From: Okamejei kenojei
Lineage: Eukaryota
Direction: 5' to 3'
Assembly: GCA_035221665.1 (NCBI GenBank)
Contig: CM069137.1
Span: forward strand, 25,420,001 to 25,484,000
DNA length: 64,000 nucleotides
Part shown: positions 2,085-60,857 of the stretch, piece by piece
Position numbering within the stretch: the first letter of the stretch is position 1
Layout of the letters: each line of letters begins with the position of its first letter
The notes under the pieces: generated by a model
The model's database searches: none
What the model saw: only the letters and a program-made list of their open reading frames with translations
Told to the model about the DNA's origin: nothing
Translations under genes and position numbers: made by a program

Positions 2085-2800
2085 TTAGGAGCAGAATTAG
2101 CCAATTCGCCCATCAAGCCTACACTGCCATTCAATCATGGCTAATCATTTTTCCCTCTCAACCCCATTCAAATTTCAATGAGATCCCCGCTTATATCCTT
2201 CTAAATTCCAGTGATTACAGGCCCAGAGCCATCGTACACTAATCTAATCATCCCTGGGATCATTCTTGTAAACATCCTCTGGATCCTCTCCAATGTCAGC
2301 ACATCCTTCCTCATATATGGGGCACATAACTGCTCACAAAACTCCAAATGCAGTCTGACCAGTGCCTTTATAAACCCTCAGCATTACATCCCTGCTCTTA
2401 CATTCTCGTCCTTTCGAAATTCTCGTAGCATTTGCCTTCCTTACTACGAATTCAACCCACAAATAGCTTTTTGGGAATCCTGCCCCTGCACTCACAAGTC
2501 CTTTTGCACCTCTGATTTCTGAATTCTCTCCCCATTTAGAAAATAGTCCACACCTTTATTTCTACTACCAAAATGTGCAGTCCGCACTCTTTGCTATGCC
2601 GTGTTACATCTGCCACTTCTTTGCCCACTATCCTCTATTCTATTTTTCTGCACTACCTGCCCCTCCAACTATCTTTGAATCATCTGCAAACTTGGCCACA
2701 AACTCATCAATTTAATCATCCAAATCATTAACATACAACGTGAAAAGTAGCAGGCGCAATATCGATCTCTGCAGAATATCTATAGTCCCTGGCAGCTAAC
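2085..2800 (-). mobile_element. CR1 LINE fragment, internally deleted
   Basis: Reverse-complement similarity to the RT/3' region of the 57450-60953 copy (e.g. catctgcaaacttgg = KFADD). Confidence 0.75.
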
Positions 2801-2814
2801 CAGAAAAAAAGCCT

Positions 2815-3830
2815 TGTCTATTTATCCTATCTATTCCCCTCATGATCTTATATACGTCTATAAGATAGATCACCCCTCATCCTCCTGTGCTCCAAGGAAT
2901 ACAGTCCTAGCATGCCCAACCTCTCACTGTAGCTTAGGCCCTCAAGTTCTGACAGCATCCTCGTAAATGTTCTCTGCATTATTTCCAGCTATATACTTCC
3001 TATAGCTGGATGAGCAAAACCGAACACAATACTCCAAATGCTGCCAACACTTGTAAAATTGTAACATACCGTCCCATCTTCTGTACTCAATACCCTGACT
3101 GATGAAGACCAATGTACTGAAAGACTTCTTGACTACCCCATCTACCTGAGATGCCACTATCAAGGAAATATTTACATGCACTCCTGGATCTCTCTGCTCC
3201 ACATACTGCCCAGGGTCCTGACATTTATGCCCCGTCCCACTTAGGAAACCTGAACGGAAACCTCTGGAGACTTTGCGCCCCACCCAAGGTTTCCGTCCGG
3301 TTCCCGGAGGTTTTTGTCAGTCTCCCTAATGGTCGAAAGTGGTTTCCACTTCTTCTATGAACTGGCGATTATTTCAAAAAATTCAAAACTGGCCAAGACT
3401 AAAAATAGGTTGCCGTTTGAAAAATCGGTAATTTTTTAGTCGAAGCCAGTTGCGATGCTAGTTGAAGTTCTTTTTTTCTTTAAGACCTTTTTTTTCACCC
3501 AGTTTTATTCCACCAGGGAGGTCTTACCTTCCACTACCTGCAACCTCTTTCAACTAGCATCGCAACCGGCTTCGACTAAAAAATTACCGAGTTTTAAAAC
3601 GGCAACCTATTTTTAGTTGTGGCTGGTTTTGAATATTTTGAAATTATCGCCAGAACTTAGAAGAAGCGGAAACCACTTTCGACCATTAGAGAGACTGACA
3701 AAAACCTCCAGGAACCTCTGGGAACCGCACGGAAACCTTGGGTGGGGTGCAAAGTCTCCAGAGGTTTCCGTTCAGGTTTCCTAAGTGGGACAGGGACATT
3801 ACTGTAAAGGTCCTGCACTGGTTTGACCTC
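2815..3830 (-). mobile_element. CR1 LINE fragment interrupted by a MITE
   Basis: ORF 2942..3283(-) QRDPGVHV...GIEYR...HLEYCV. Host sequence resumes after the TTA duplication at 3799-3801. Confidence 0.8.
3228..3798. mobile_element. PIF/Harbinger-type MITE, long foldback
   Basis: Ends tgccccgtcccactta / taagtgggacagggaca; about 240-bp inverted arms (3228-3467 vs 3549-3798); TTA duplicated at 3225-3227 and 3799-3801. Confidence 0.85.
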
Positions 3831-4879
3831 GCACTGTTCATGTTTTGGTTCATTAAAAGTAAATGTGAGCAAGCAAATGGCAGGAAAGGTGAGTACGGGG
3901 AGAGGACTTGTTCTCAAACAATCAGGCCCATTGTACAATTTAACAGGGAAAGTTTAATTGTATGACTGTTCATGCTAAATTTAATCTTACATTGACTTGT
4001 TAGATAACAATTCCATTCCATGGCAACTTGAGGAGCACAAAGATATTCAAAATAAAATACAGACTTCAAAGGATTTTAATATTTGAGAGTTGCAATCATT
4101 TAATTGCCTGTAGTGATAATGCAGAAAATTAACTCTCTTCAAACACTCTGTAACGCATAGGACCTGATAAACTTCTCTCTTAACTTCAGTTGAAATGAAA
4201 ATTAGGCAATGTGTCTGAAGAAAAAAAAGCACATCTTTCCACTTTAGACCACTGCAAAAGCTACATTTCAATTGTACTGTTTAAAATATGCAATCTGTGA
4301 GTTCTTCAATGGATTCATATGACAGGCGCTTTCTCAAACAGTTTAAGGATGTTATCTTTCCCACTTGCCTATTTCCTTTAGATCCATCAACCCCATCCAA
4401 AACATTCCTATGCAAGGAAGAAATGCTTTTGAAAAATTACTTTCTCAGATTAGATGAATTTATGTTGGGCTAATTAGTAAAGTCATGGACTGCAACCTTT
4501 CTTATAACACATGAAATGAATTGTTAACGTCACAAACTAAATTATCCATGTTTTTAATGCCGTGAATTGATTTGTGCACAATCATGCTCGAAATGATGCC
4601 CTCCAGAATAAATAGATACCTTGGTCAGCTTTTCTACCTGTTTCATCATAGATTCGGAATTGTGCAGTACAAAAACAATCCTTTTCGCCCACCACATTCA
4701 TTAACACTAATGCGGTTTGCCTGCATTAGGTCCACGTCCCTCTATGCCTTCCGTCTTTAAGTGCCAGTCTCAATGCCTCTTAAACATGATCATTGTAAAA
4801 AACTCCACAACCTCCTCTGGCAGGTATCAACCACTCTGTTGTAAAAAAATACACCCGCTCAACATAACATAGAACTAAT

Positions 4880-5311
4880 TAGTAGGCCCCCCTAAGTCAT
4901 GACTGACCATGGGTGATGCATCCTGGTCGGATGCAAGCCTGGGCGATGTCATATGGAAGACAGGCTGTTGCCCATGCAGCACATCCCCCCTCTCCACGTC
5001 GCTGATCGATCCAAAGGAACAGCAGGGCCGTTACAGTTTGGCACCAGTGCCATCGCAGGAGCTGCCTGAGCGAGGTTGTAGACAACGACGAACTGCCTTA
5101 GGGGCTCCGGCTCCGGATATTCTTGAGGTTTACTCCTGGAGTCTTTTCCATGACTGGATATGGCCACAAGGCAGTGGAGGTTTTAAATCAGAGTTTTCAT
5201 TCTCCTAGATGGACTGCCTTCCCAGGCTGACGAGCCCCACCTGCCCGGGACTCGTGGGGGTGGGAGCGTCCACCTTCCTGTGCAGGTCTATAGCACCTGC
5301 CAACTGCCCAA
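4880..5311 (-). mobile_element. Short non-autonomous RTE-related retroposon
   Basis: 11-bp TSD atagaactaat (4869-4879, 5312-5322); GC-rich body; minus-strand motif CTAGGAGAATGAAAACTCTGATTTAAAACC resembles RTE 5' UTR motifs (recalled). Confidence 0.65.
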
Positions 5312-6887
5312 ATAGAACTAATAATCACTAATTAATTAAAGAAAATGTGCCAGGATAGGCTGAACATTCTTAATATAAACAGCCAGACAAAATATATGAC
5401 TTAAATCTGAATTATGGCCAGAGTGGAGTTGATACTCAATTGCATGCACATCCTGTGTGAATTATTTTCAAAACCTCAGTCACTTTGATGGTTTAAAATA
5501 TTGAGCAACTATCTGAAATTTTAAAATAAAATCGAACACAGTTTAATTGTTCAAGAGTTACATTCTACAATGTTTTAAATTTGTGACAAGTATGCATTTT
5601 AAAAGATTTCCCATGCAAAGTTTTCCTCAAACATTTGCAAGTGTCGATAGACATATATATATTTTTTAATTGGTTACAGATACCAAATGACATAAGGAGT
5701 TTGCAATATATTTTTGTCCCTTGAGAGTTATTTAAGCACTATGCTGGACGTATATGGATCAGAAACACAATTCTGAATTCAAATTGTGTATGAGTTGAAG
5801 CATTATTCAGTTATGGTCTTTTGTTTGGTTTCTGTCCAGGATCAAGATGTAAGCTTGTTTTTGGTATTTGAAGAGACATGTATTGATCAATTGAGTGGTC
5901 CTTTGTGACTTTGGTAAAATTAAGTTTAATGTTGTTGTCTTTTACAGAGGAGACCAGCAAGTGTGATACAGGCCTGTTGGGAAAAGATTTTGTGCTTGGC
6001 GGGGACTGTAGTTAATGAGTGCACCCTGACTCCAGCCAGTAACTGAGACAAAGTATAATGTGGGATGGAAGTGTTCTACTGTGTTGTTTGTCTCAGCTTA
6101 ACAGGACCAGCAATCGATTGGAATAAGGACTCCAGCTCTTGCATCGGGCTCCTTTGGTAATGCAATCAATCACCCCAACCATTTAAATTTTAATTCCCCT
6201 TGAGGCCCTTAAACAATGCTATACACAAGCATTCCTTTTACTCAGCAATGCCAAATGGCAAGGAAAAAGCTAAACTCTCTTGTAGTTTGAGATTCTTGTT
6301 GCTTAATAACTCAGGACATTGTTGATGGGGTAAACATTGTATTGACTATTTCCCATATTTGAAAGACATCACAAGATGTTTACACAAACCAACAGTTTTA
6401 TAGATGTCCATAGGATCTAGTCCTACCTCTGAAATTTACTCTGAAATTTACTTGAATTAATTGACGGACAATGGTTTGAGCATTCCCAGGAGAAATATTT
6501 TAGTATATTGAGACTGCATATTCTGGAATCTGGAAACAATTGCTGGAAACAATTGAAAATTTGTTGTTGGGATAGTCAAAATCCATGATCTTTACAACTT
6601 TTCGTAATATAAAGTGGAGCTGTTCTGTTTAAATCAGTGTGTTTGAACATTTAAGAAGTAAAATTAATGAAAGAAAGTAAATCAGCCCAGCTTTTCAACA
6701 AAGTGCGTAAATTAAGTCAAGTTAAGGAAAGGAAACAGCTATAGAATATTGCAGATAACTCCTGAATTTGAGGAGTTGTGCCAGAATATCTCATCCTAAA
6801 GAGGTTATTCAACTTCTGCAAAGTGAACCAGGGTGTTCTAATTGGAAGTAATGTGATAAAACCTCCAGAACCCAATTGGAAGTAATG

Positions 6888-29646: not shown

Positions 29647-30235
29647 GTAATGCTGAGGCTCTATAAGGCGCTGGTCAGGCGCATTTAGAATATTGTGAGC
29701 AATTTTGGGCACCATATCTCAGGAAGGACGTGCTGGCTCTGGAGAGGGTCCAGGGGAGGTTTACAAGAATGATCCCAGGAATGAGTAGATTAACAATTTT
29801 ATTGGTGTTTGACGCCACTCAGCCTCTATTCGCTGGAGTTTAGAAGAATGAGGAGGGGACCTCATTGAAACGTACAGAATAGTGAAAGGCTTGGAAAAGT
29901 GGATGTGGAGAAGATGTTTCCATTAGTGGGAGAGTCTAGGTCTAGAGGTCATAGCCTCAGAATTAAAGGATGTTCTTTTAGAAAGGAGATGAGGAGGAAT
30001 TTCTTTCTTTAGTCAGAGGGCGGTGAATCTGTGGAATTCTTTGCCACAGAAGGCAATGGAGGCAAAGTCAGTGGATATATTTAAGGCAGAGATAGATAGA
30101 TTCTTGATTGGTGCAGGTGTCAGAGGTTATGAGGAAGGCAGGAGAATGGGGTTAGGAGGGAGAGATAGATCAGCCATAATTGAATGGCATAGACTTGATG
30201 GGCCAAATGGCCTAATTCTGCTCCTATCGCATGAT
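29647..30235 (+). mobile_element. CR1 LINE 3' fragment
   Basis: LYKALVR..LEYC region through NLWNSLPQK and 3' UTR. Confidence 0.9.
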
Positions 30236-30498
30236 TATTACCTATTTATCCAAATCACATTTACCAGCATTGACTCTTAACGTTCTACATCTGGGAAATT
30301 CATGTTCTCATTTAGTTACTTCTTAAATGTTGCTACTGTCAGTACCTCCACGATCCCTCGGGCAATTTGTTCCACATTCTAGTCACCCTCCATTTGATAA
30401 AAATCTTCCTCATTTTCCCACCAAAGTCTCCTCTCTAAACTAATGCTCTCTAATTATATACACCTTAAGACATCAGTAAACACACATCCCTGCTGCTC

Positions 30499-30639
30499 TC
30501 TTCTTCTTCTTGCGTATGGCGTGCACAGCCCAAGTTGTAGGCCAACTTGTTCTATTTGATCTTATTTCATTGTGCACGCCAGGTTGATTGCATTCGTTGA
30601 AACAGGGTGAACCACGTGAAGGTTGCAATCTCCCATCCC
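30499..30639 (-). mobile_element. 141-bp non-autonomous retroposon with 5' HDV-like ribozyme and (GAA)n tail (possibly Ingi/Vingi-related)
   Basis: 10-bp TSD cctgctgctc (30489-30498, 30640-30649); minus-strand 3' end ...CCATACGCAAGAAGAAGAAGA. Confidence 0.85.
30586..30639 (-). ncRNA. HDV/CPEB3-like self-cleaving ribozyme motif
   Basis: GGGAUGG(P1) GA GAUUGCA(P2) ACC(P3) UUCACGU(L3) GGU(P3') UCACCCU(P1') GU UUCAA CGAA UGCAAUC(P2'). P2 7/7, P3 3/3, P1 6/7 with G1-U wobble. Confidence 0.8.
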
Positions 30640-31249
30640 CCTGCTGCTCGCAAACCATTAGTTTGCAAAGTCAATACTCCCTAATGCTGGAATTAGCTTA
30701 TATTGTCCCCAACAATACAGCAATCTTTCCCAACACTAATATTTTCTGGGATTCTTAGAACAGTGAATTGAGATCCTGGAATATGTCCTGTGAGCTGAGT
30801 TCCACTTTGTCTGGTAAATAACCTGCAATCTGGCCTACTTCACCTATCCTAAATTACTCTTACGTTTCATGCCAATACCTTCAGAACGTGAGACCATATT
30901 CTTCCCACCAATCTCAGGGACTGTCCCTAAAGTAATGAGTCAGATTCCTGGTAAGAACTCTAGGCAAAACACCCACATGCTTATTAATCTTTTAAACTAC
31001 TCTAAATAGACATCACAGGGGATGTGTTTGCATAAGAAGGAGGCAATGGAATGATTTTCTGGCATTGTTGTTGGAACCACTGGGCAATTTACCAGTATGC
31101 TGAAAACTTAGCTTTCAATGCGCCTGTGATTAATGTATAACTAATCTGTTGGCTGTATGTGTCACCGGTCTATTGCTGGTATCATGTAAAATATCTACTG
31201 GTGAGTGTACAGGATAAAGGGAAGTGCAATGTAGATTAAGATGTCATTG

Positions 31250-40875: not shown

Positions 40876-41755
40876 TCAAGTCAAGTCAAGTTTATTTGTC
40901 ACATACGCATACAAGATGTGCAGTGAAATAAAAAGTGGCAATGCTTGCGGATTGTGCAAAAAAAACCCCTACAAAACAGATTGGAACAGAATCAGTAATT
41001 ACATATTGGTGGGAGGGAAAAAAAAAGAAAAAAACAGCAATTTTATAAAGACACCACACAACAGTAAATTGGTACAGTAAGTTAGTCTGTGGTGAGATAG
41101 GAGTTTACAGTCCTAATGGCCTCTGGGAAGAAACTCCTTCTCATCCTCTCTGTTTTCACAGCATGACAACAGAGGCGTTTGCCTGACCGAAGCAGCTGGA
41201 ACAGTCTGTTGCTGGGGTGGAAGGGGTCCCCCATGATCTTGTTGGCTCTGGATTTGCACCTTCTGATGTATAGTTCCTGCAGAGGGGCGAGTGAAGTTCC
41301 CATAGTGCTTTCGGCTGAACACACTACTCTCTGCAGAGCCTTCTTGTCCTGGGCAGAGCAGTTCCCAAACCAAATTGTGATGTTTCCGGACAAGATGCTT
41401 TCCATAGCCACTGAGTAGAAGCACTGGAGGATCCTCGAAGACACTCTGAATTTCCTCAATTGCCTGAGGTGGTAAAGGCGCTGCCTTGCCTTACTCAGCA
41501 GTGCAGCAGCGTGTGATGTGGACTCCCAGGTATTTAAAGCAGTTCACCCTGTCTATAGTATCCCCATTTATCTTCAATGGTGTGTACATCCTCGGATGTT
41601 GTGCCCTCCTAAAGTTCACGATCAGCTCCTTAGCTTTTTTGACATTCAAGAGGGGGCTGCTGTCCTGACACCAGAGTGCCAGATCAGCCACCTCCTCTCG
41701 ATAGGCCTTCTCATTGTTATCGGAGATCAGGCCCACCACCACAGTGTCATCAGCA
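40876..41755 (-). mobile_element. Rex1/Babar-type LINE 3' fragment
   Basis: ORFs VVGLISDNNEKAYREEV...FKYLGVHI and ESILSGNITIWFGN...LQRVV; (gactt)n tail at 40876-40890. Confidence 0.85.
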
Positions 41756-53839: not shown

Positions 53840-55090
53840 TAGTGTATTGAAGGCAGTCGTTACATCAGAAGGGGTAATTGAGCCTTCTGTCTATCAAAGT
53901 CAACAATTTCTGTCAAGTATATTTCCCAGATCTAAAAAGACTGGGGGATGTAGAATTATTCTGGATTTATCGAATTTGAACAAATTTGTTTGTTATAGGC
54001 ATTTCAAAATGGAGAACTTTACCACGTGCAAACATCTAGTGTCCAAAGGGTATTAAATGGCAACCATTGATTTAAAGAATGCGTATTACGCAGTGTCTAT
54101 TCATGGTGATGATAGAAGATATTTGAAATTTATTTGGATGACTGAGCTGTGGCAATTCAGGACATTGCCGAATGGATTAACTTCAGCTCCTAGATTATTT
54201 ACTAAATTGGTAAAACCTGTGTTAGCATTGCTTAGAGCTCAGGGGCATGTGGTAATGGCCTATTTAGATGATTTCAGGTTGTTGGAAAGACTCATGCTGA
54301 AACTCAATCATCAGTTTCAGTTGTTAAAATCACTTTTGAACAAATGGGATTTGTTATTCACCCAGGTAAATCTAAATTATCACCAGTCCAAATTATTGAT
54401 TATCTGGGATTTACCATTAATTCCAATCACATGTTGGTAACTTTGCCCAGGGATAAATTGAATCAGTTAATTGAGGACTGTGCTAATCTCGTTGGAGAAC
54501 AACGGCCTTTGATTAGACAAGTAGCCAGTTTTATTGGGAAGTTGTTGCAGCCTTTCCAGCTGTGCAGTATTGTCCTCTGCATTATCAACAATTACAACCA
54601 TCAAAGGAACAGGCACTGAGAATACAAAGGGGCTATTTTTGATAGGCCTATGCAGTTGTCAGCTGGGGCGATTGCTGACATACAATGGTGGATAGTACAT
54701 GTTTCAAAAAATTTAAGGAAGGTTTCGTGGAATCACCGTCACTGATATTACAGACTGATGTGAGTGCACTGGGTTGGGGTGCAACAGATATGTCTTCTAG
54801 TTGTGGAGGCAGATGGAATGTGCATGAGACATCGCTTCCTCAATTAAGAGGGATTGATTATTTAGAGTTGTTGGGCACCTGGTATGGGCTCAAAACTTAT
54901 TGTTCTACAAGGAGGGATCTGCATGTGCAGCTCAGATTCACAACACCACAGCAGTGGCATATGTAAACCACATGGGTGGAGTTAAGTCACAGTCTTGTGA
55001 TAGACTGGCTAACCAGATTTGGAGCTGGTGTATTGACCAAAATATCTGGCTTTCAGCACTTTATTTGCCAGGAAGAGGTCACATCAGTTA
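53840..55090 (+). pseudogene. DIRS reverse transcriptase / RNase H (disrupted)
   Basis: KKTGGCRIILDL, HFKME, IDLKNAY, LPNGLTSAPRLFTK, YLDD, YLGF, TDVS..GWG, LELL, NTTAVAYVNHMGG across frames with stops. Confidence 0.9.
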
Positions 55091-55490
55091 ATGACAACAT
55101 TGAATGGATGTTAAATCAGGATGTGTTTAACCAAATGATTGATCAGTATGCATTGCCAGATATTGACTTGTTTGCATCTCGATTAAATCATCAGTTACCT
55201 AGATATGTTTCATGGTAACCAGATTCTGGGGCAGTAGCAGTGGATGCATTTTCGCTGCATTGGGGGAGGAATGTTTGTGTATGTATTTCCTTCATTCTGT
55301 CTCATCAGCAGATGTTTGCAAAAGATCAAGGAGGACACCGCTTCAGGGGTATTGGTAGTGCCAAATTGGCCTACACGAGCATGGTTTCCCGTTGTATTAC
55401 AAATGGCTAGGGAGCCTTACATGCTTATGCCCAAGAATAAAAATCTACTGGTAAATCCAGTCACTGGGGATCAACATCCTTTATAGGATC
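55091..55490 (+). pseudogene. DIRS DAM-like methyltransferase domain (disrupted)
   Basis: IDLFASRLNHQLPRYVSW, DAF, YVFPSF, LVVPNW motifs typical of the DIRS MT domain. Confidence 0.85.
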
Positions 55491-55529
55491 GTATTGATCT
55501 GTTAATTTGCAGATTTTAAGGAGGCCATA

Positions 55530-56330
55530 CCTGGGGAGAGGACTGTCTCATCGGACGGTGGATGTTCTCACGTCGGCCTGCAGGGATAGTACACAGCAGC
55601 AATATATCACCTATATAAGGAAGTGGGAGCAATTCTGCCTACAGCAGGATATTGTATATCACACGGCAGGGATCACGGATGTATTGGAGTTTGTCAACTC
55701 TTTATTTTGACCAAAAAATTAAGTTACAGTGCAATTAATTCAGCCAGAAGTGCTCTGTCTTCTTATTTACCTATGAATGCAGAATTGCATACAGTAGGGA
55801 CACATCCGTTAGTTCACGATTCATGAAGGGAGTTTTCAATTCTAATCCTCCTAAACTCAGGTATGCCGGTATTTGCAATGTGAGTGAGGTTTTTATGCTT
55901 CTTCGCCAGTGGGCTCCGGTTACAAGCCTATCTATAGCCAAATTAACTATGAAGGTGGTCATGCTTCTGGTGTTGGTTTCAGCCCAACGTGTACAAACAT
56001 TGCAAAAGCTACGGCTAGATAGAATTCATGTGTCGGCTGATGCCATTATATTTTATGTCTATGATTTGCTTAAACATAATAAAAGAGGCATGACAGGATG
56101 TAAGATTGTGTTTTCAGCATACCCCGCAGATGATCGCTTCTGTATAGTCTCACATTTATCTCGTTACATTGAGATTACTAAACCTCTGAGAGGAATAGAG
56201 TTGGCTTTGTTTATTAGTCACAAAAAACCACACAGTAAGGTGTCGGTGCAAACTATTTCAAGGTCCTCGCGGCCACAGGATGGTTCAGTGAGCTAATTTC
56301 AGAGGGTTTGTCACAAGCCGATTTCAAGGC
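55530..56330 (+). pseudogene. DIRS tyrosine recombinase (disrupted)
   Basis: STQQQY..YIRKW, LSYSAINSARSALS, LVSAQRVQTL, LFISHKKPH..VS..TISR; the HxxR segment is absent. Confidence 0.85.
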
Positions 56331-57464
56331 TCGGGGTGTTTGCTGATTCTGGTGTCAGTACTGTTACACTTTTCCCCTGAGTTAGAGGGGTTTGTTATGA
56401 TTTGTTAGTACATAACCTGTTATTCCATTTAACAAATGTATTACTGATGCATGATTGATTGTTAACGACTTTTGAGTCAATCCAGGCAGTGTGAACGTCG
56501 GATTTGAGTCTGCGGCGTGAATTCACAGTGCTTTGAAGTCTTCACGTAGTCACTCACGTGACTCCGAAGTAAAATAGTAAGATTAAACGAGAACTTACCA
56601 GTTTGAAGTTTGATCTTTATTTTATGAGGAGTCGAGTTGAGGGACTACGTGCCCTCCGCTCCCACCCTCATAGATCTCATCTGGTAGTTCTAGTTTTATC
56701 ATCTTACCGTTATACTTCGGTCATTGTTAGCTGTGAATTCATTCCGCTGCTTTGAAGATTGACGCACCAACGGCTGTACGGGCTTCTATTCACGTAGTCC
56801 CTCAACTCGACTCCTCATAAAATAAAGATCAAACTTCAAACTGGTAAGTTCTCGTTTAATCTTGAGTTAATTCTAGATGTTTCTAATGCGTTTCTTGAGA
56901 GAAAAAAAAAGAATATTCATCTTTTTAAGTAACTTTCATGAAAGGACGTTAACATTTGAATAGAACTGTGAACAGTTAACTTTAATTATGACCATAACCT
57001 CAAAAAATGATAGCATTTCAACATTATATTTCATTGTTAGTAATATAATACATTAACCAAGATGGAGACTGGGCCAGAGGCATACATGTGAGTGATTTCT
57101 TTTATAATTAACCCCTTTGCAAACAGAAAGGGACAGTTCTGAACTTAATTGCTGAGCCCTTAGGAAAGATGTTTAGCTTTCAAATGCATTCATTTAAGAG
57201 TTATATTTTATGCAAGTGTACTTTAATTTGGGCAACCATAATTTGTTTTGCTACTTTTTTGGGAGTACTTCGACAAGTGTACATTTCCAGATCAATTTAG
57301 AATAGCTCACTTTCCCTGTTTAACTATCAGAAATAATTAAAATAAGCTGCATCCTGATCACTTTGTTTCAGTGAGAACATTGTTGGTTGAATCCAAGGTC
57401 AAGAAATCCAACATTTCCCCAAAGCGTAGGATAATAATCTAAATCAGCACATGAGGGGGGAAAA

Positions 57465-57983
57465 AAGAGGGGAAGGGCAATAGTAATAGGGGATTCAATT
57501 GTCAGGGGAATAGATAGGCGTTTCTGCGGCCGCAAACGAGACTCCAGGATGGTATGTTGCCTCCCTGGTGCAAAGGTCAGGGATGTCACTGAACGGCTGC
57601 AGAACATTCTGGAGGGGGAGGGTGAACAGCCAGTTGTCGTGGTGCATGTTGGCACCAACGATATAGGTAAAAAAAGGGATGAGGTCCTACAAGGTGAATT
57701 TAGGGAGCTAGGAGATAAACTTAAAAGTAGGACCTCAAAGGTAGTAATCTCCGGATTACTACCAGTACCACGGGCCAGTCAGAGTAGAAATAGGAGGATA
57801 ATGCAAATGAATACGTGGCTTGAAAAGTGGTGCAAGGGGGAGGGATTCAAATTTTTAGGGCACTGGGACCAGTTCTGGGGGAGATGGGACCGGTACAAAC
57901 AGGACGGTTTGCACCTGGAATGGAATGGAACCAATGTTCTTGGGGGAGTGTTTGCTAGTGCTGTCGGGGAGGATTTAAACTAA
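57465..57983 (+). CDS. CR1 ORF1 C-terminal SGNH/GDSL esterase domain (5'-truncated)
   Basis: IVIGDSIVR (upstream of the listed Met), CLPGA, HVGTND, DGLHL catalytic blocks in one open frame. Confidence 0.9.
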   Translation, partial: KRGRAIVIGDSIVRGIDRRFCGRKRDSRMVCCLPGAKVRDVTERLQNILEGEGEQPVVVVHVGTNDIGKKRDEVLQGEFRELGDKLKSRTSKVVISGLLPVPRASQSRNRRIMQMNTWLEKWCKGEGFKFLGHWDQFWGRWDRYKQDGLHLEWNGTNVLGGVFASAVGEDLN

Positions 57984-58133
57984 TGTGGCAGGGGGATGGG
58001 TACAAGAGCAGAGAGGCAGGAGGGTGTAAAATGAGGGTAGAAGCATTAGGTAGCAAGGTGAAAATCAAAAAGGGCCACTTTTCAGCAAAATTGTATAAGG
58101 GGTAAGTGCGTTGTAAAGACAAGCCTGAAGGCT

Positions 58134-60857
58134 TTGTGTCTCAATGCAAGGAGTATTCGTAATAAGGTGGACGAGTTGAACGTGCAGATAGATATTAATG
58201 ATTATGATATAGTTGGGATCACGGAGACATGGCTCCAGGGTGACGTAGGCTGGGAGCTGAACATCCAGGGATATTCAATATTCAGGAGGGATAGAGAGAA
58301 AGGAAAAGGAGGTGGGGTAGCGTTGCTGGTTAGAGAGGAGATTAACGCAATGGAAAGGAAGGACATTAGCTTGGAGGATGTGGAATCGGTATGGGTAGAG
58401 CTACAAAACACTAAGGGGCAGAAAACGCTGGTGGGTGTTGTGTACAGGCCACCTAACAGTAGCAGAGAAGTTGGGGATGGTATCAAACAGGAAATTAGAA
58501 ATGCGTGCGACAAAGGCAAAACAGTTATAATGGGTGACTTCAATCTACATATAGATTGGGTTAATCAAATTGGCAGGGGTGCTGAGGAAGAGGATTTTTT
58601 GGAATGTATGCGGGATAGTTATCTAAATCAACATGTAGAGGAACCAACGAGAGAGCAGGCTATTTTAGACTGGGTTTTGAGTAATGAGGAAGGGGTAATT
58701 AGCCGTCTTGTTGTACGTGCCCCCTTGGGCAAGAGTGACCATAATATGGTTGAGTTCTTCATTAGGATGGAGAGTGACATTGTTAATTCAGAAACAATGG
58801 TTCTGAACTTAAAGAAAGGTAACTTTGAGGGTATGAGACGTGAATTGGCCAAGATTGACTGGCAATTAATTCTAAAAGGGTTGACGGTGGATATAGAATG
58901 GAAGACATTTAAAGACTGCATGGATGAACTACAAAAATTGTTCATCCCAGTTTGGCAAAAAAAAAATCGGGGAAGGTAGTGCATCCGTGGATAACAAGGG
59001 AAATCAGGGATAGTATCAAAGCAAAGGATGATGCGTACAAAGTAGCCAGAAAAAGCAGCATACCAGAGGACTGGGAGAAATTCAGAGACCAGCAGAGGAG
59101 GACAAAGGGCTTAATTAGGAAAGGAAAAATAGATTATGAAAGAAAACTGGCAGGGAACATAAAAACTGACTGCAAAAGTTTTTATAGATATGTGAAGAGA
59201 AAGAGGTTAGTTAAAACAAATGTAGGTCCCTTGCAGTCAGAAACAGGTGAGTTGATCATGGGGAACAAGGATATAGCAGGGGACTGTGGGTCAAAGGAGG
59301 AATTGAGTGAAATCCAGGTCAGTCGGGAAGTGGTGTTGGGTAAATTGAATAGATTAAAGGCCGATAAATCCCCAGGGCCAGATAGGCTGCATCCCAGAGT
59401 ACTTAAGGAAGTAGCTCAGGAAATAGTGGATGCATTAGTGATAATCTTTCAAAACTCTTTAGATTCTGGAGTAGTTCCTGAGGATTGGCGGGTAGCAAAT
59501 GTAACCCCTCTTTTTAAGAAGGGAGGGAGAGAGAAAACGGGGAATTACAGACCAGTTAGTCTAACATCGGTAGTGGGGAAACTGCTAGAGTCAGTTATTA
59601 AAGATGGGATAGCAGCACATTTGGAAAGTGGTGAAATCATTGGACAAAGTCAGCATGGATTTACAAAAGGTAAATCATGTCTGACGAATCTTGTGGAATT
59701 TTTCGAGGATGTAACTAGTAGCGTGGATAAGGGAGAACCAGTGGATGTGGTATATCTGGACTTCCAGAAGGCTTTCGACAAGGTCCCACATAAGAGATTA
59801 GTATACAAACTTAAAGCATACGGTATTAGGGGTTCAGTATTGATGTGGATAGAGAACTGGCTGGCAAACAGGAAGCAAAGAGTAGGAGTAAACGGGTCCT
59901 TTTCACAATGGCAGGCAGTAACTAGTGGGGTACCGCAGGGCTCAGTGCTGGGACCCCAGCTATTTACAATATATATGAATGATCTGGATGAGGGAATTGA
60001 AGGCAATATCTCCAAGTTTGCGGATGACACTAAGCTGGGGGGCAGTGTTCGCTGTGAGGAGGATGCTAGGAGACTGCAAGGTGACTTGGATAGGCTGGGT
60101 GAGTGGGCAAATGTTTGGCAGATGCAGTATAATGTGGATAAATGTGAGGTTATCCACTTTGGTGGCAAAAACAGGAAAGCAGACTATTATTTAAATGGTG
60201 GCCGATTAGGAAAAGGGGAGATGCAGCGAGACCTGGGTGTCATGGTACACCAGTCATTGAAAGTAGGCATGCAGGTGCAGCAGGCAGTGAAAAAAGCGAA
60301 TGGTATGTTAGCTTTCATAGCAAAAGGATTTGAGTACAGGAGCAGGGAGGTTCTACTTCAGTTGTACAGGGTCTTGGTGAGACCACACCTGGAGTATTGC
60401 GTACAGTTTTGGTCTCCAAATCTGAGGAAGGACATTATTGCCATAGAGGGAGTGCAGAGAAGGTTCACCAGACTGATTCCTGGGATGTCAGGACTGTCTT
60501 ATGAAGAAAGACTGGATAGACTCGGTTTATACTCTCTGGAATTTAGGAGATTGAGAGGGGATCTTATAGAAACGTACAAAATTCTTAAGGGGTTGGGCAG
60601 GCTAGATGCAGGAAGATTGTTCCCGATGTTGGGGAAGTCCAGGACAAGGGGGTCACAGCATAAGGATAAGGGGGAAATCCTTTAAGACCGAGATGAGAAA
60701 GACTTTTTTCACACAGAGAGTGGTGAGTCTCTGGAACTCTCTGCCACAGAGGGTAGTTGAGGCCAGTTCATTGGCTATATTTAAGAGTGAGTTGGATGTG
60801 GCCCTTGTGGCTAAGGGGATCAGAGGGTATGGAGAGAAGGCAGGTACGGGATACTGA
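58134..60857 (+). pseudogene. CR1 ORF2 (APE endonuclease plus RT) with frameshifts at about 58960 (A-run) and about 60650 (G-run)
   Basis: LNARS, ITETW, YRPP, GDFN, SDH; KSPGPD, QHGF, GVPQGS, FADD. Confidence 0.95.

Follow-up and report, generated by a model that had tools for sequence, protein, structure and literature searches.

An abundant LINE-end retroposon family of Okamejei kenojei with a predicted minimal HDV-type ribozyme at its 5' end

The closest described relatives of the element analysed here are NARTc, RIME, NARTco and SIDER1 of trypanosomatids, which are short two-ended derivatives of APE-type LINEs of the Ingi/Vingi group (L1Tc/Ingi) that begin with an HDV-like ribozyme (Pr77), the NARTco and SIDER ribozymes being reported to cleave in vitro (PMC4035085). 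The R2 SIDEs of Drosophila also join a 5' HDV-like ribozyme, active in vitro, to a LINE 3' end, are not transcribed by Pol III and are modelled as being cleaved from a co-transcript (PMC3414825). Vingi LINEs and the internal-deletion derivatives of Vingi-1_EE provide a third comparison, with a single ORF that codes for an endonuclease together with a reverse transcriptase (RT) without RNase H, and with bipartite derivatives (PMC5786205, PMC13708176); ancient traces of Vingi are reported from the human genome (PMC5753468, PMC9004415). In regards to the ribozyme, HDV-like examples are known from some LINEs and SINEs of diverse animals (reviewed in PMC6765202), with lamprey and lancelet examples listed (PMC8256844), and minimal P4-less HDV-like and theta ribozymes lack the P4 domain and have the catalytic cytosine as the first base of J4/2 (PMC10879173). 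Finally, the mammalian CPEB3 ribozyme (RF00622) is an intronic, conserved host-gene sequence of the same topology (PMC8233481).

The element reported here shares features with each of these systems and represents a new clade and a new host for an architecture known from trypanosomes and flies. It differs from NARTc, RIME and SIDER1 in that its partner LINE lacks RNase H, its host is an animal with a 2.76-Gb genome, its ribozyme is a predicted one that is almost without P4, and it is present in at least 15,000 copies. Whereas R2 SIDEs are rare, specific for a 28S rDNA site and of RLE type (PMC3414825), this element is dispersed, abundant and APE-type. In contrast to Vingi-1_EE and other Vingi as described, heads of its clade carry HDV-type folds, both in its own genome and in metagenome contigs. 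While nearly 99% of the theta and minimal ribozyme matches of one study are from phage, often beside tRNAs (PMC10879173), the minimal fold here belongs to an animal retrotransposon and its derivative. Neither this family nor a derivation of CPEB3 from Vingi is described in the literature examined, although Vingi heads or this element may already be recorded in Repbase, Dfam or earlier original papers on HDV-like ribozymes and Vingi.

The copy at this locus spans 141 bases on the minus strand, from 30499 to 30639 of the window, by which we mean the whole 64,000-nucleotide stretch of contig CM069137.1 that was analysed. Re-reading of the sequence reproduced the letters, strand and coordinates of the initial annotation, together with the 10-bp direct repeat it had described: identical copies occupy 30640-30649 on the element's 5' side and 30489-30498 on its 3' side, and the repeat can be read one base further, into G1. 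Element positions 1-54 (30586-30639, minus strand) constitute the predicted minimal HDV-like ribozyme. As read from pairing on the minus strand, P1 joins 30639-30633 with 30610-30604, P2 joins 30630-30624 with 30592-30586, and P3 joins 30623-30621 with 30613-30611; L3 lies at 30620-30614, J1/4 at 30603-30602, the vestigial P4 at 30601-30597 and J4/2 at 30596-30593. P2 is perfect, as had been claimed (seven of seven Watson-Crick pairs), and all three P3 pairs are also Watson-Crick. The earlier description of P1 was right about the G1-U36 wobble and the A4-C33 mismatch but overlooked an additional G7-U30 wobble. P4 is indeed nearly absent, being reduced to a single U-A pair that closes a four-base loop, and P1.1 would presumably be a single C22-G37 pair, as in CPEB3. 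The candidate catalytic cytosine, C44, is found at 30596 on the minus strand, where it had been placed.

Other repeats are present in the window as well. Just left of the element, 30150-30230 is the 3' terminus of a different repeat, which has a very high copy number and is plentiful in both DNA and RNA runs. From translations we take 57438-60685 to be a CR1-type LINE that is nearly complete; at 54057-56296, paired fragments resembling an RT and a tyrosine recombinase appear by eye to be DIRS-type, and 41082-41543 is presumably a Rex1/Babar-like fragment.

The element is a member of a multi-copy family, as the initial annotation had supposed. A 28-base head pattern matched 15,004 times in the O. 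kenojei genome at no more than one mismatch, and a 24-base tail pattern had 2,882 exact matches, with no matches for either reversed-pattern control; the family size of at least 15,004 copies that we use is taken from the head-pattern count. Searching this genome with the element itself returned 2,101 candidates, with the 40 scored ones being 93-100% identical. Copies for an analysis of 5' ends were the first 70 tail matches on one contig (C1), chosen by tail alone to avoid a bias towards full-length copies. Starts at position 1-2 were observed in 56 of these 70 copies (G1 itself in 49), starts at positions 3-10 in six and later starts in eight, which is the pile-up of 5' ends at G1 that had been anticipated. 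Upstream columns -10 to -2 are unrelated among copies. Position -1 is T in 28 of the 49 copies that begin at G1, a preference that a model of pure cutting at G1 accounts for only via untemplated addition or target preference. A duplication of at least 8 bp that ends within -4 to +3 of the start was seen in 48 of the 56 copies (a hand count without a shuffle control, one case being doubtful), so the family has amplified independently with target-site duplications. Three near-identical miniatures (L080, L081 and L151) that are spaced about 2.2 kb apart within a tandem array were also observed on contig C3 at about 26.55 Mb.

Overall, the family looks old and inactive. The mean divergence of its copies from the family majority is 7.1%, and three other organisms have contigs that lead from the flanking sequence of the window locus into the element, indicating that this insertion predates their split. 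No joint that skips the element was found among 15 of 72 joints in other organisms' contigs, the site being occupied in three. All stems and core letters are intact in only 13 of the 56 copies with a complete head. The frequent head variants are at position 8 (J1/2), position 32 (U-G to U-A), position 42 (loop) and position 45 (second base of J4/2, with T in 14 and A in 14 copies). Of these, the two common variants outside a CpG context (positions 8 and 45) affect unpaired bases, and G32A leaves its pair intact. C44 is kept in 48 of the 56 copies. Within the C44-G45 CpG, C-to-T is found in three copies and G-to-A in 14 (binomial p = 0.013, tested once and post hoc); at positions 62-63, a CpG outside the head, the changes are symmetric, nine and seven. 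This rarity of C44T relative to G45A suggests that source copies needed C44.

The initial annotation had also suggested looking for an autonomous LINE sharing both ends of the element, and such a LINE is present in the same genome, with its first ~77 and last ~40 bases in common with the element. The lead to this partner came from contigs belonging to two other organisms, in which a recurring alternative sequence lies upstream of element position 100 and can be read as an ORF end. A pattern derived from this ORF end has 481 matches in the O. kenojei genome that are LINE tails, and the 30 tail copies that were fetched are 5'-truncated and share their last ~40 bases and an (AAG)n tail with the element. 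Walking upstream led to LINE copies that start with the same head, with element positions 1-77 aligning to L297 at 93.5% and positions 1-82 aligning to L294, and the near-full-length copy L265 carries both ends, namely positions 8-77 of the head and, about 3.5 kb further on, the tail. Using the LINE 5' UTR as query yielded 40 scored matches; several of the 30 that were fetched start at G1, and they have nothing in common upstream. Exclusion-pattern searches for a LINE diverging after the head, the hairpin or P2 returned only damaged miniatures, the junctions lying elsewhere. Every partner copy that was examined is broken. A different candidate, a young LINE that has two ORFs, encodes RNase H and also carries an (AAG)n tail, was rejected as the partner since it shares only the tail and a chance 14-mer with the element. 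This LINE lies on the minus strand of L121 at 2362-6189 (contig C2). Its 1,276-aa frame for endonuclease, RT and RNase H is intact, it has a 3' hairpin besides the tail, and its copies are up to 99.8% identical; it is possibly still active, and we take it to be Nimb-like. A full miniature with its own duplication was additionally found inside a copy of the partner LINE (L261:2105-2237, minus strand).

Fragments of the partner LINE have matches to PF14529 (endonuclease) and PF00078 (RT), and its ORF ends, by eye, in a CCHC-type finger. An intact relative of 1,019 amino acids (P0001), which is 70% identical over the query and along which the fragments on L265 tile, contains the same endonuclease and RT domains. 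RNase H (PF00075) was not detected on P0001 at E values up to 0.1 or on C-terminal fragments of the partner, whereas the Nimb-like control did give PF00075. The partner thus has the single-ORF build, with an APE endonuclease and an RT and without RNase H, that is described for Vingi as 'single-ORF ... lacks an RNase H domain' (PMC13708176). Accordingly, we assign the partner to Vingi by anatomy, the RT tree having been built from sequences that carry no Vingi or Ingi name.

The miniature consists of LINE positions 1 to ~77, a junction of ~20 bases, the last codons of the LINE ORF, a short 3' UTR and the tail. In the window copy the remainder of the part derived from the LINE 5' UTR extends to position ~77-82 (30560-30585), based on the blastn alignments to L297 and L294. 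The junction segment (30541-30559), which is absent from the LINE ends, can be read as a local duplication and an inverted copy of the tail start, both short, an origin that we offer as likely from the letters. It is followed by the LINE 3' end (30512-30540), with the last ORF codons, the site of the stop codon (changed here) and the short 3' UTR common to the 481 LINE tails, and by the (AAG)n tail (30499-30511), all on the minus strand. A long stem is predicted to link the 5'-derived and 3'-derived halves (positions ~59-70 with 112-123; 30517-30581, minus strand), and the whole-element fold has a z of -2.27; pairing between the 5' UTR and 3' UTR of the LINE itself is not better than that of shuffles (116/1,000). 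Judged by its sequence, the element is a bipartite internal-deletion derivative of a LINE and not a Pol III SINE. Thus, the initial proposal of a SINE-like family mobilised by an Ingi/Vingi-like LINE holds in that a partner of Vingi build exists, but the family is not a SINE: it has two LINE ends, shared 5' and 3' with the same LINE, and belongs to a known kind, the SIDEs.

We then asked how well the head fits an HDV-type fold. The family majority and the LINE head both have the nested double-pseudoknot order, with a P1 of 7 bp, P2, a P3 of 3 bp and L3, and P1 plus P3 is the minimum-energy fold for majority-like and LINE heads. Searches against Rfam gave weak matches below cut-off on near-majority copies: heads of this type reach 17.5 bits against RF02682 over positions 1-54 (E 0.2), and RF02682 is the only Rfam match of the partner LINE head. 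No Rfam ribozyme match was obtained on the window copy, on 2 kb around it or on the whole window. P1 plus P3 in the window copy (-7.1 kcal/mol) is 5.3 kcal/mol weaker than in a majority-like copy (-12.4 kcal/mol) and is not its minimum-energy fold. Its A4-C33 mismatch is atypical, as G4, which pairs, is present in 54 of the 56 tail-selected full-length copies, and its base at -1 is G. The absence of an Rfam match, the weaker and non-minimal fold and the G at -1 indicate that the window copy is probably a damaged family member, and it would be a poor cutter.

Relatives of the partner provide more substantial evidence for the fold. Among 80 metagenome loci that encode related proteins, 28 include the ORF start and 22 have at least 110 bases upstream of it. 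These were searched with a descriptor of our own, an HDV-type fold pattern that requires the J4/2 cytosine and that finds the LINE head and misses the window copy. In the 450 bases or fewer that precede the ORF at each locus, 9,731 bases altogether, the descriptor identified eight folds, starting 171-284 bases before the endonuclease, as compared to none in 256,153 other sense bases and none in 265,884 reverse bases. Three of the eight represent one locus, leaving six distinct folds of which one is weak; folds were found in 8 of the 22 loci, and 14 had none. The equivalent of C44 is the first base of J4/2 in all relatives found, as the descriptor demands. Pairing was also scored in 12 heads that we chose from five families in the O. 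kenojei genome and five metagenome loci. Paired cells make up 97.4% of the total, and two-sided changes occur in 14 of the 17 pairs, a result reached by 0 of 500 shuffles and contrasting with 43-53% paired in slid alignments, in a set that leans towards structure because five rows come from the pairing-demanding descriptor and the element family's two rows are misaligned with no P2 cells. The covariation of P1, P2 and P3 that the initial annotation had proposed to look for is therefore observed across homologues, with rows that were pre-selected, and the fold is conserved while its stems change. Since the stems covary across relatives that differ in primary sequence, an RNA structure fits better than a DNA motif, and the head is a probable minimal, P4-less HDV-like ribozyme according to these fold models.

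Taken together, our preferred reading, to which we give a probability of roughly 0.8, is that the element is a LINE-end retroposon whose first 54 bases form a predicted minimal HDV-type ribozyme that cuts at G1, after which the LINE protein copies the RNA. A host or upstream transcript would run through an element copy, the head would fold and cleave before G1 with C44 as the catalyst, and the folded 5' end may shield the uncapped RNA. The LINE protein would then bind the 3' end and (AAG)n tail, nick the target and reverse-transcribe to G1, a step that may often add 0-4 extra bases and that would leave a duplication of about 8-14 bp.

The strongest competitor to this reading, and still an unlikely one, is that the head serves chiefly as an internal Pol II promoter from which transcription begins at G1, like Pr77 in L1Tc and NARTc, with the ribozyme fold being secondary and cleavage not setting the 5' end. 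The Pr77 hallmark of the sister clade occupies the same position and is both promoter and ribozyme (PMC4035085), so that the promoterless state put forward in the initial annotation is a supposition. Precise initiation of transcription would likewise cause 5' ends to accumulate at G1. The partner LINE bears on this point through copies in which the head is inverted against the downstream LINE segment, which by our reading of the sequences is the case for 15 of 30 LINE 5' copies in a sample that was enriched by being picked by 5' end. The inversion joint lies within 13 bases of G1 in 11 of these 15 copies and exactly at G1 in one (L401), and none includes upstream flank, indicating that the template RNA ended at about G1. 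Such an end fits cleavage and a precise transcription start alike. The inversions resemble twin priming, a mechanism known mainly from L1. They are very common, occurring in 15 of 30 partner copies (L383-L412) and in 11 of 30 loci with the sister heads described below (L413-L442), and our search of the literature on Ingi found no report of them.

The RNA evidence is also compatible with a promoter. In one poly(A) run of another organism, with 900 reads on a near-majority copy, strand unknown and copies old, there was no pile-up of read starts or ends; 312 reads cross G1 into varied flanks and 257 cross the 3' end. The C44T share in RNA reads (57/530) is like that of other CpG sites and is consequently uninformative on cleavage, and the flanks of the window locus have no read depth in this run. 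The run lends no support to cleavage in vivo and is a weak test, given poly(A) selection and old copies. Three observations nevertheless argue against a promoter as the main function of the head: its stems covary across relatives despite differing primary sequence, the end of the element coincides with the predicted scissile position both here and in the metagenome element L341, whose duplication stops a single base short of G1, and C44 changes less often than its CpG partner.

We regard as quite improbable a second alternative, in which the P4-less head has lost its ability to cut and persists as a structured 5' module, either shielding the RNA or serving as a recognition site for the LINE protein when reverse transcription ends. 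The reduction of P4 to one pair, the low Rfam scores, the reads that cross G1 freely and a report that the HDV fold gives R2 templates cap-like protection (PMC13708176) would all be accommodated by it. However, HDV-like ribozymes without P4 have been described, and their theta relatives cleave and lose activity upon a C-to-U change (PMC10879173). Moreover, the autonomous partner has the same minimal head, and a second family in the genome is also without P4 and has kept the cytosine. Finally, it is highly improbable that the element is simply a Pol III SINE of tRNA origin whose decayed head looks like a ribozyme by coincidence, because the A-box-like and B-box-like pair present, at 3 and 2 mismatches, is matched in looseness in 1,152 of 2,000 shuffles, no tRNA gene was found, in agreement with the initial statement that tRNA A and B boxes are missing, and the head being the 5' end of a protein-coding LINE already contradicts this origin.

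A likeness to the mammalian CPEB3 ribozyme had also been noted at this locus. It holds for the letters of L3 and J4/2, which equal the Rfam CPEB3 consensus, as does the GU after P1, but the P1, P2 and P3 sequences differ and P4 is missing, and a near-majority head scores 13.7 bits against RF00622 (E 0.26; cut-off 35), making this head only a distant cousin of CPEB3. The link to CPEB3 rests instead on sister families and not on the window copy. Specifically, the metagenome element L341 scores 55.6 bits against RF00622, with 34 of its first 36 ribozyme positions equal to the consensus by our count. L341 has the same build, measures 3.2 kb and comes with a 14-bp duplication, and another copy is 90% identical to it. 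In the O. kenojei genome, 30 of 59 scored RF00622 candidates pass the cut-off of 35, the best at 66.8 bits, and the same search of 14 control genomes gave none. The 30 passing heads fall into four families, and a related ORF adjoins 14 of them, three in line downstream and eleven inverted upstream. For example, 44 of the first 46 positions of L414 equal the CPEB3 consensus, including the start of P4, and L419 has a compensated change in P2. An RT tree in which L430 was the sole sister family with a long enough fragment, five shorter fragments being left out, places L341 and L430 in a subclade (100/99) apart from the partner of the element; the subclade also holds L314, with a head unlike CPEB3.

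Stem letters vary freely across this clade, and near identity in P1, P2, P3 and P4 is thus hard to explain by convergence. The CPEB3 ribozyme, published as restricted to mammals, is likely, on this comparison of sequences, to be of retrotransposon origin, with the sister heads indicating where it came from. We infer the direction from LINE to CPEB3 from the heads being widespread in the clade and CPEB3 being a single mammalian locus. More broadly, we find it reasonably probable that HDV-type ribozymes, ranging from 54-base P4-less to full-size forms, are the general 5' end of Vingi and its miniatures, and that CPEB3 is a domesticated Vingi 5' end with relatives surviving in this genome and in one other eukaryote. 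One of the four sister families is a second P4-less miniature with a ribozyme head (L434-L437, L439 and L441). It measures ~165-170 bases and possesses stems and duplications of its own as well as an (AAG)n tail. The G1 position is occupied by T in all six copies, and, as in the present family, a long stem is predicted to bring the 5'-derived and 3'-derived halves of its body together.

These results extend 5' ribozymes, as a prediction, to Vingi, a clade that is now used for gene insertion (PMC13708176), and the natural 140-base template shows the minimum that a Vingi protein needs. The P4-less HDV-type fold, so far reported mostly from phage (PMC10879173), is now found in thousands of copies in an animal genome. 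The match of sister heads to CPEB3 in arbitrary stem letters makes the origin of CPEB3 testable, and if the Vingi origin is true, these heads would supply the missing non-mammalian outgroups of CPEB3. If the preferred reading is true, more than 15,000 dispersed self-cutting motifs would be present in this genome from one family alone.
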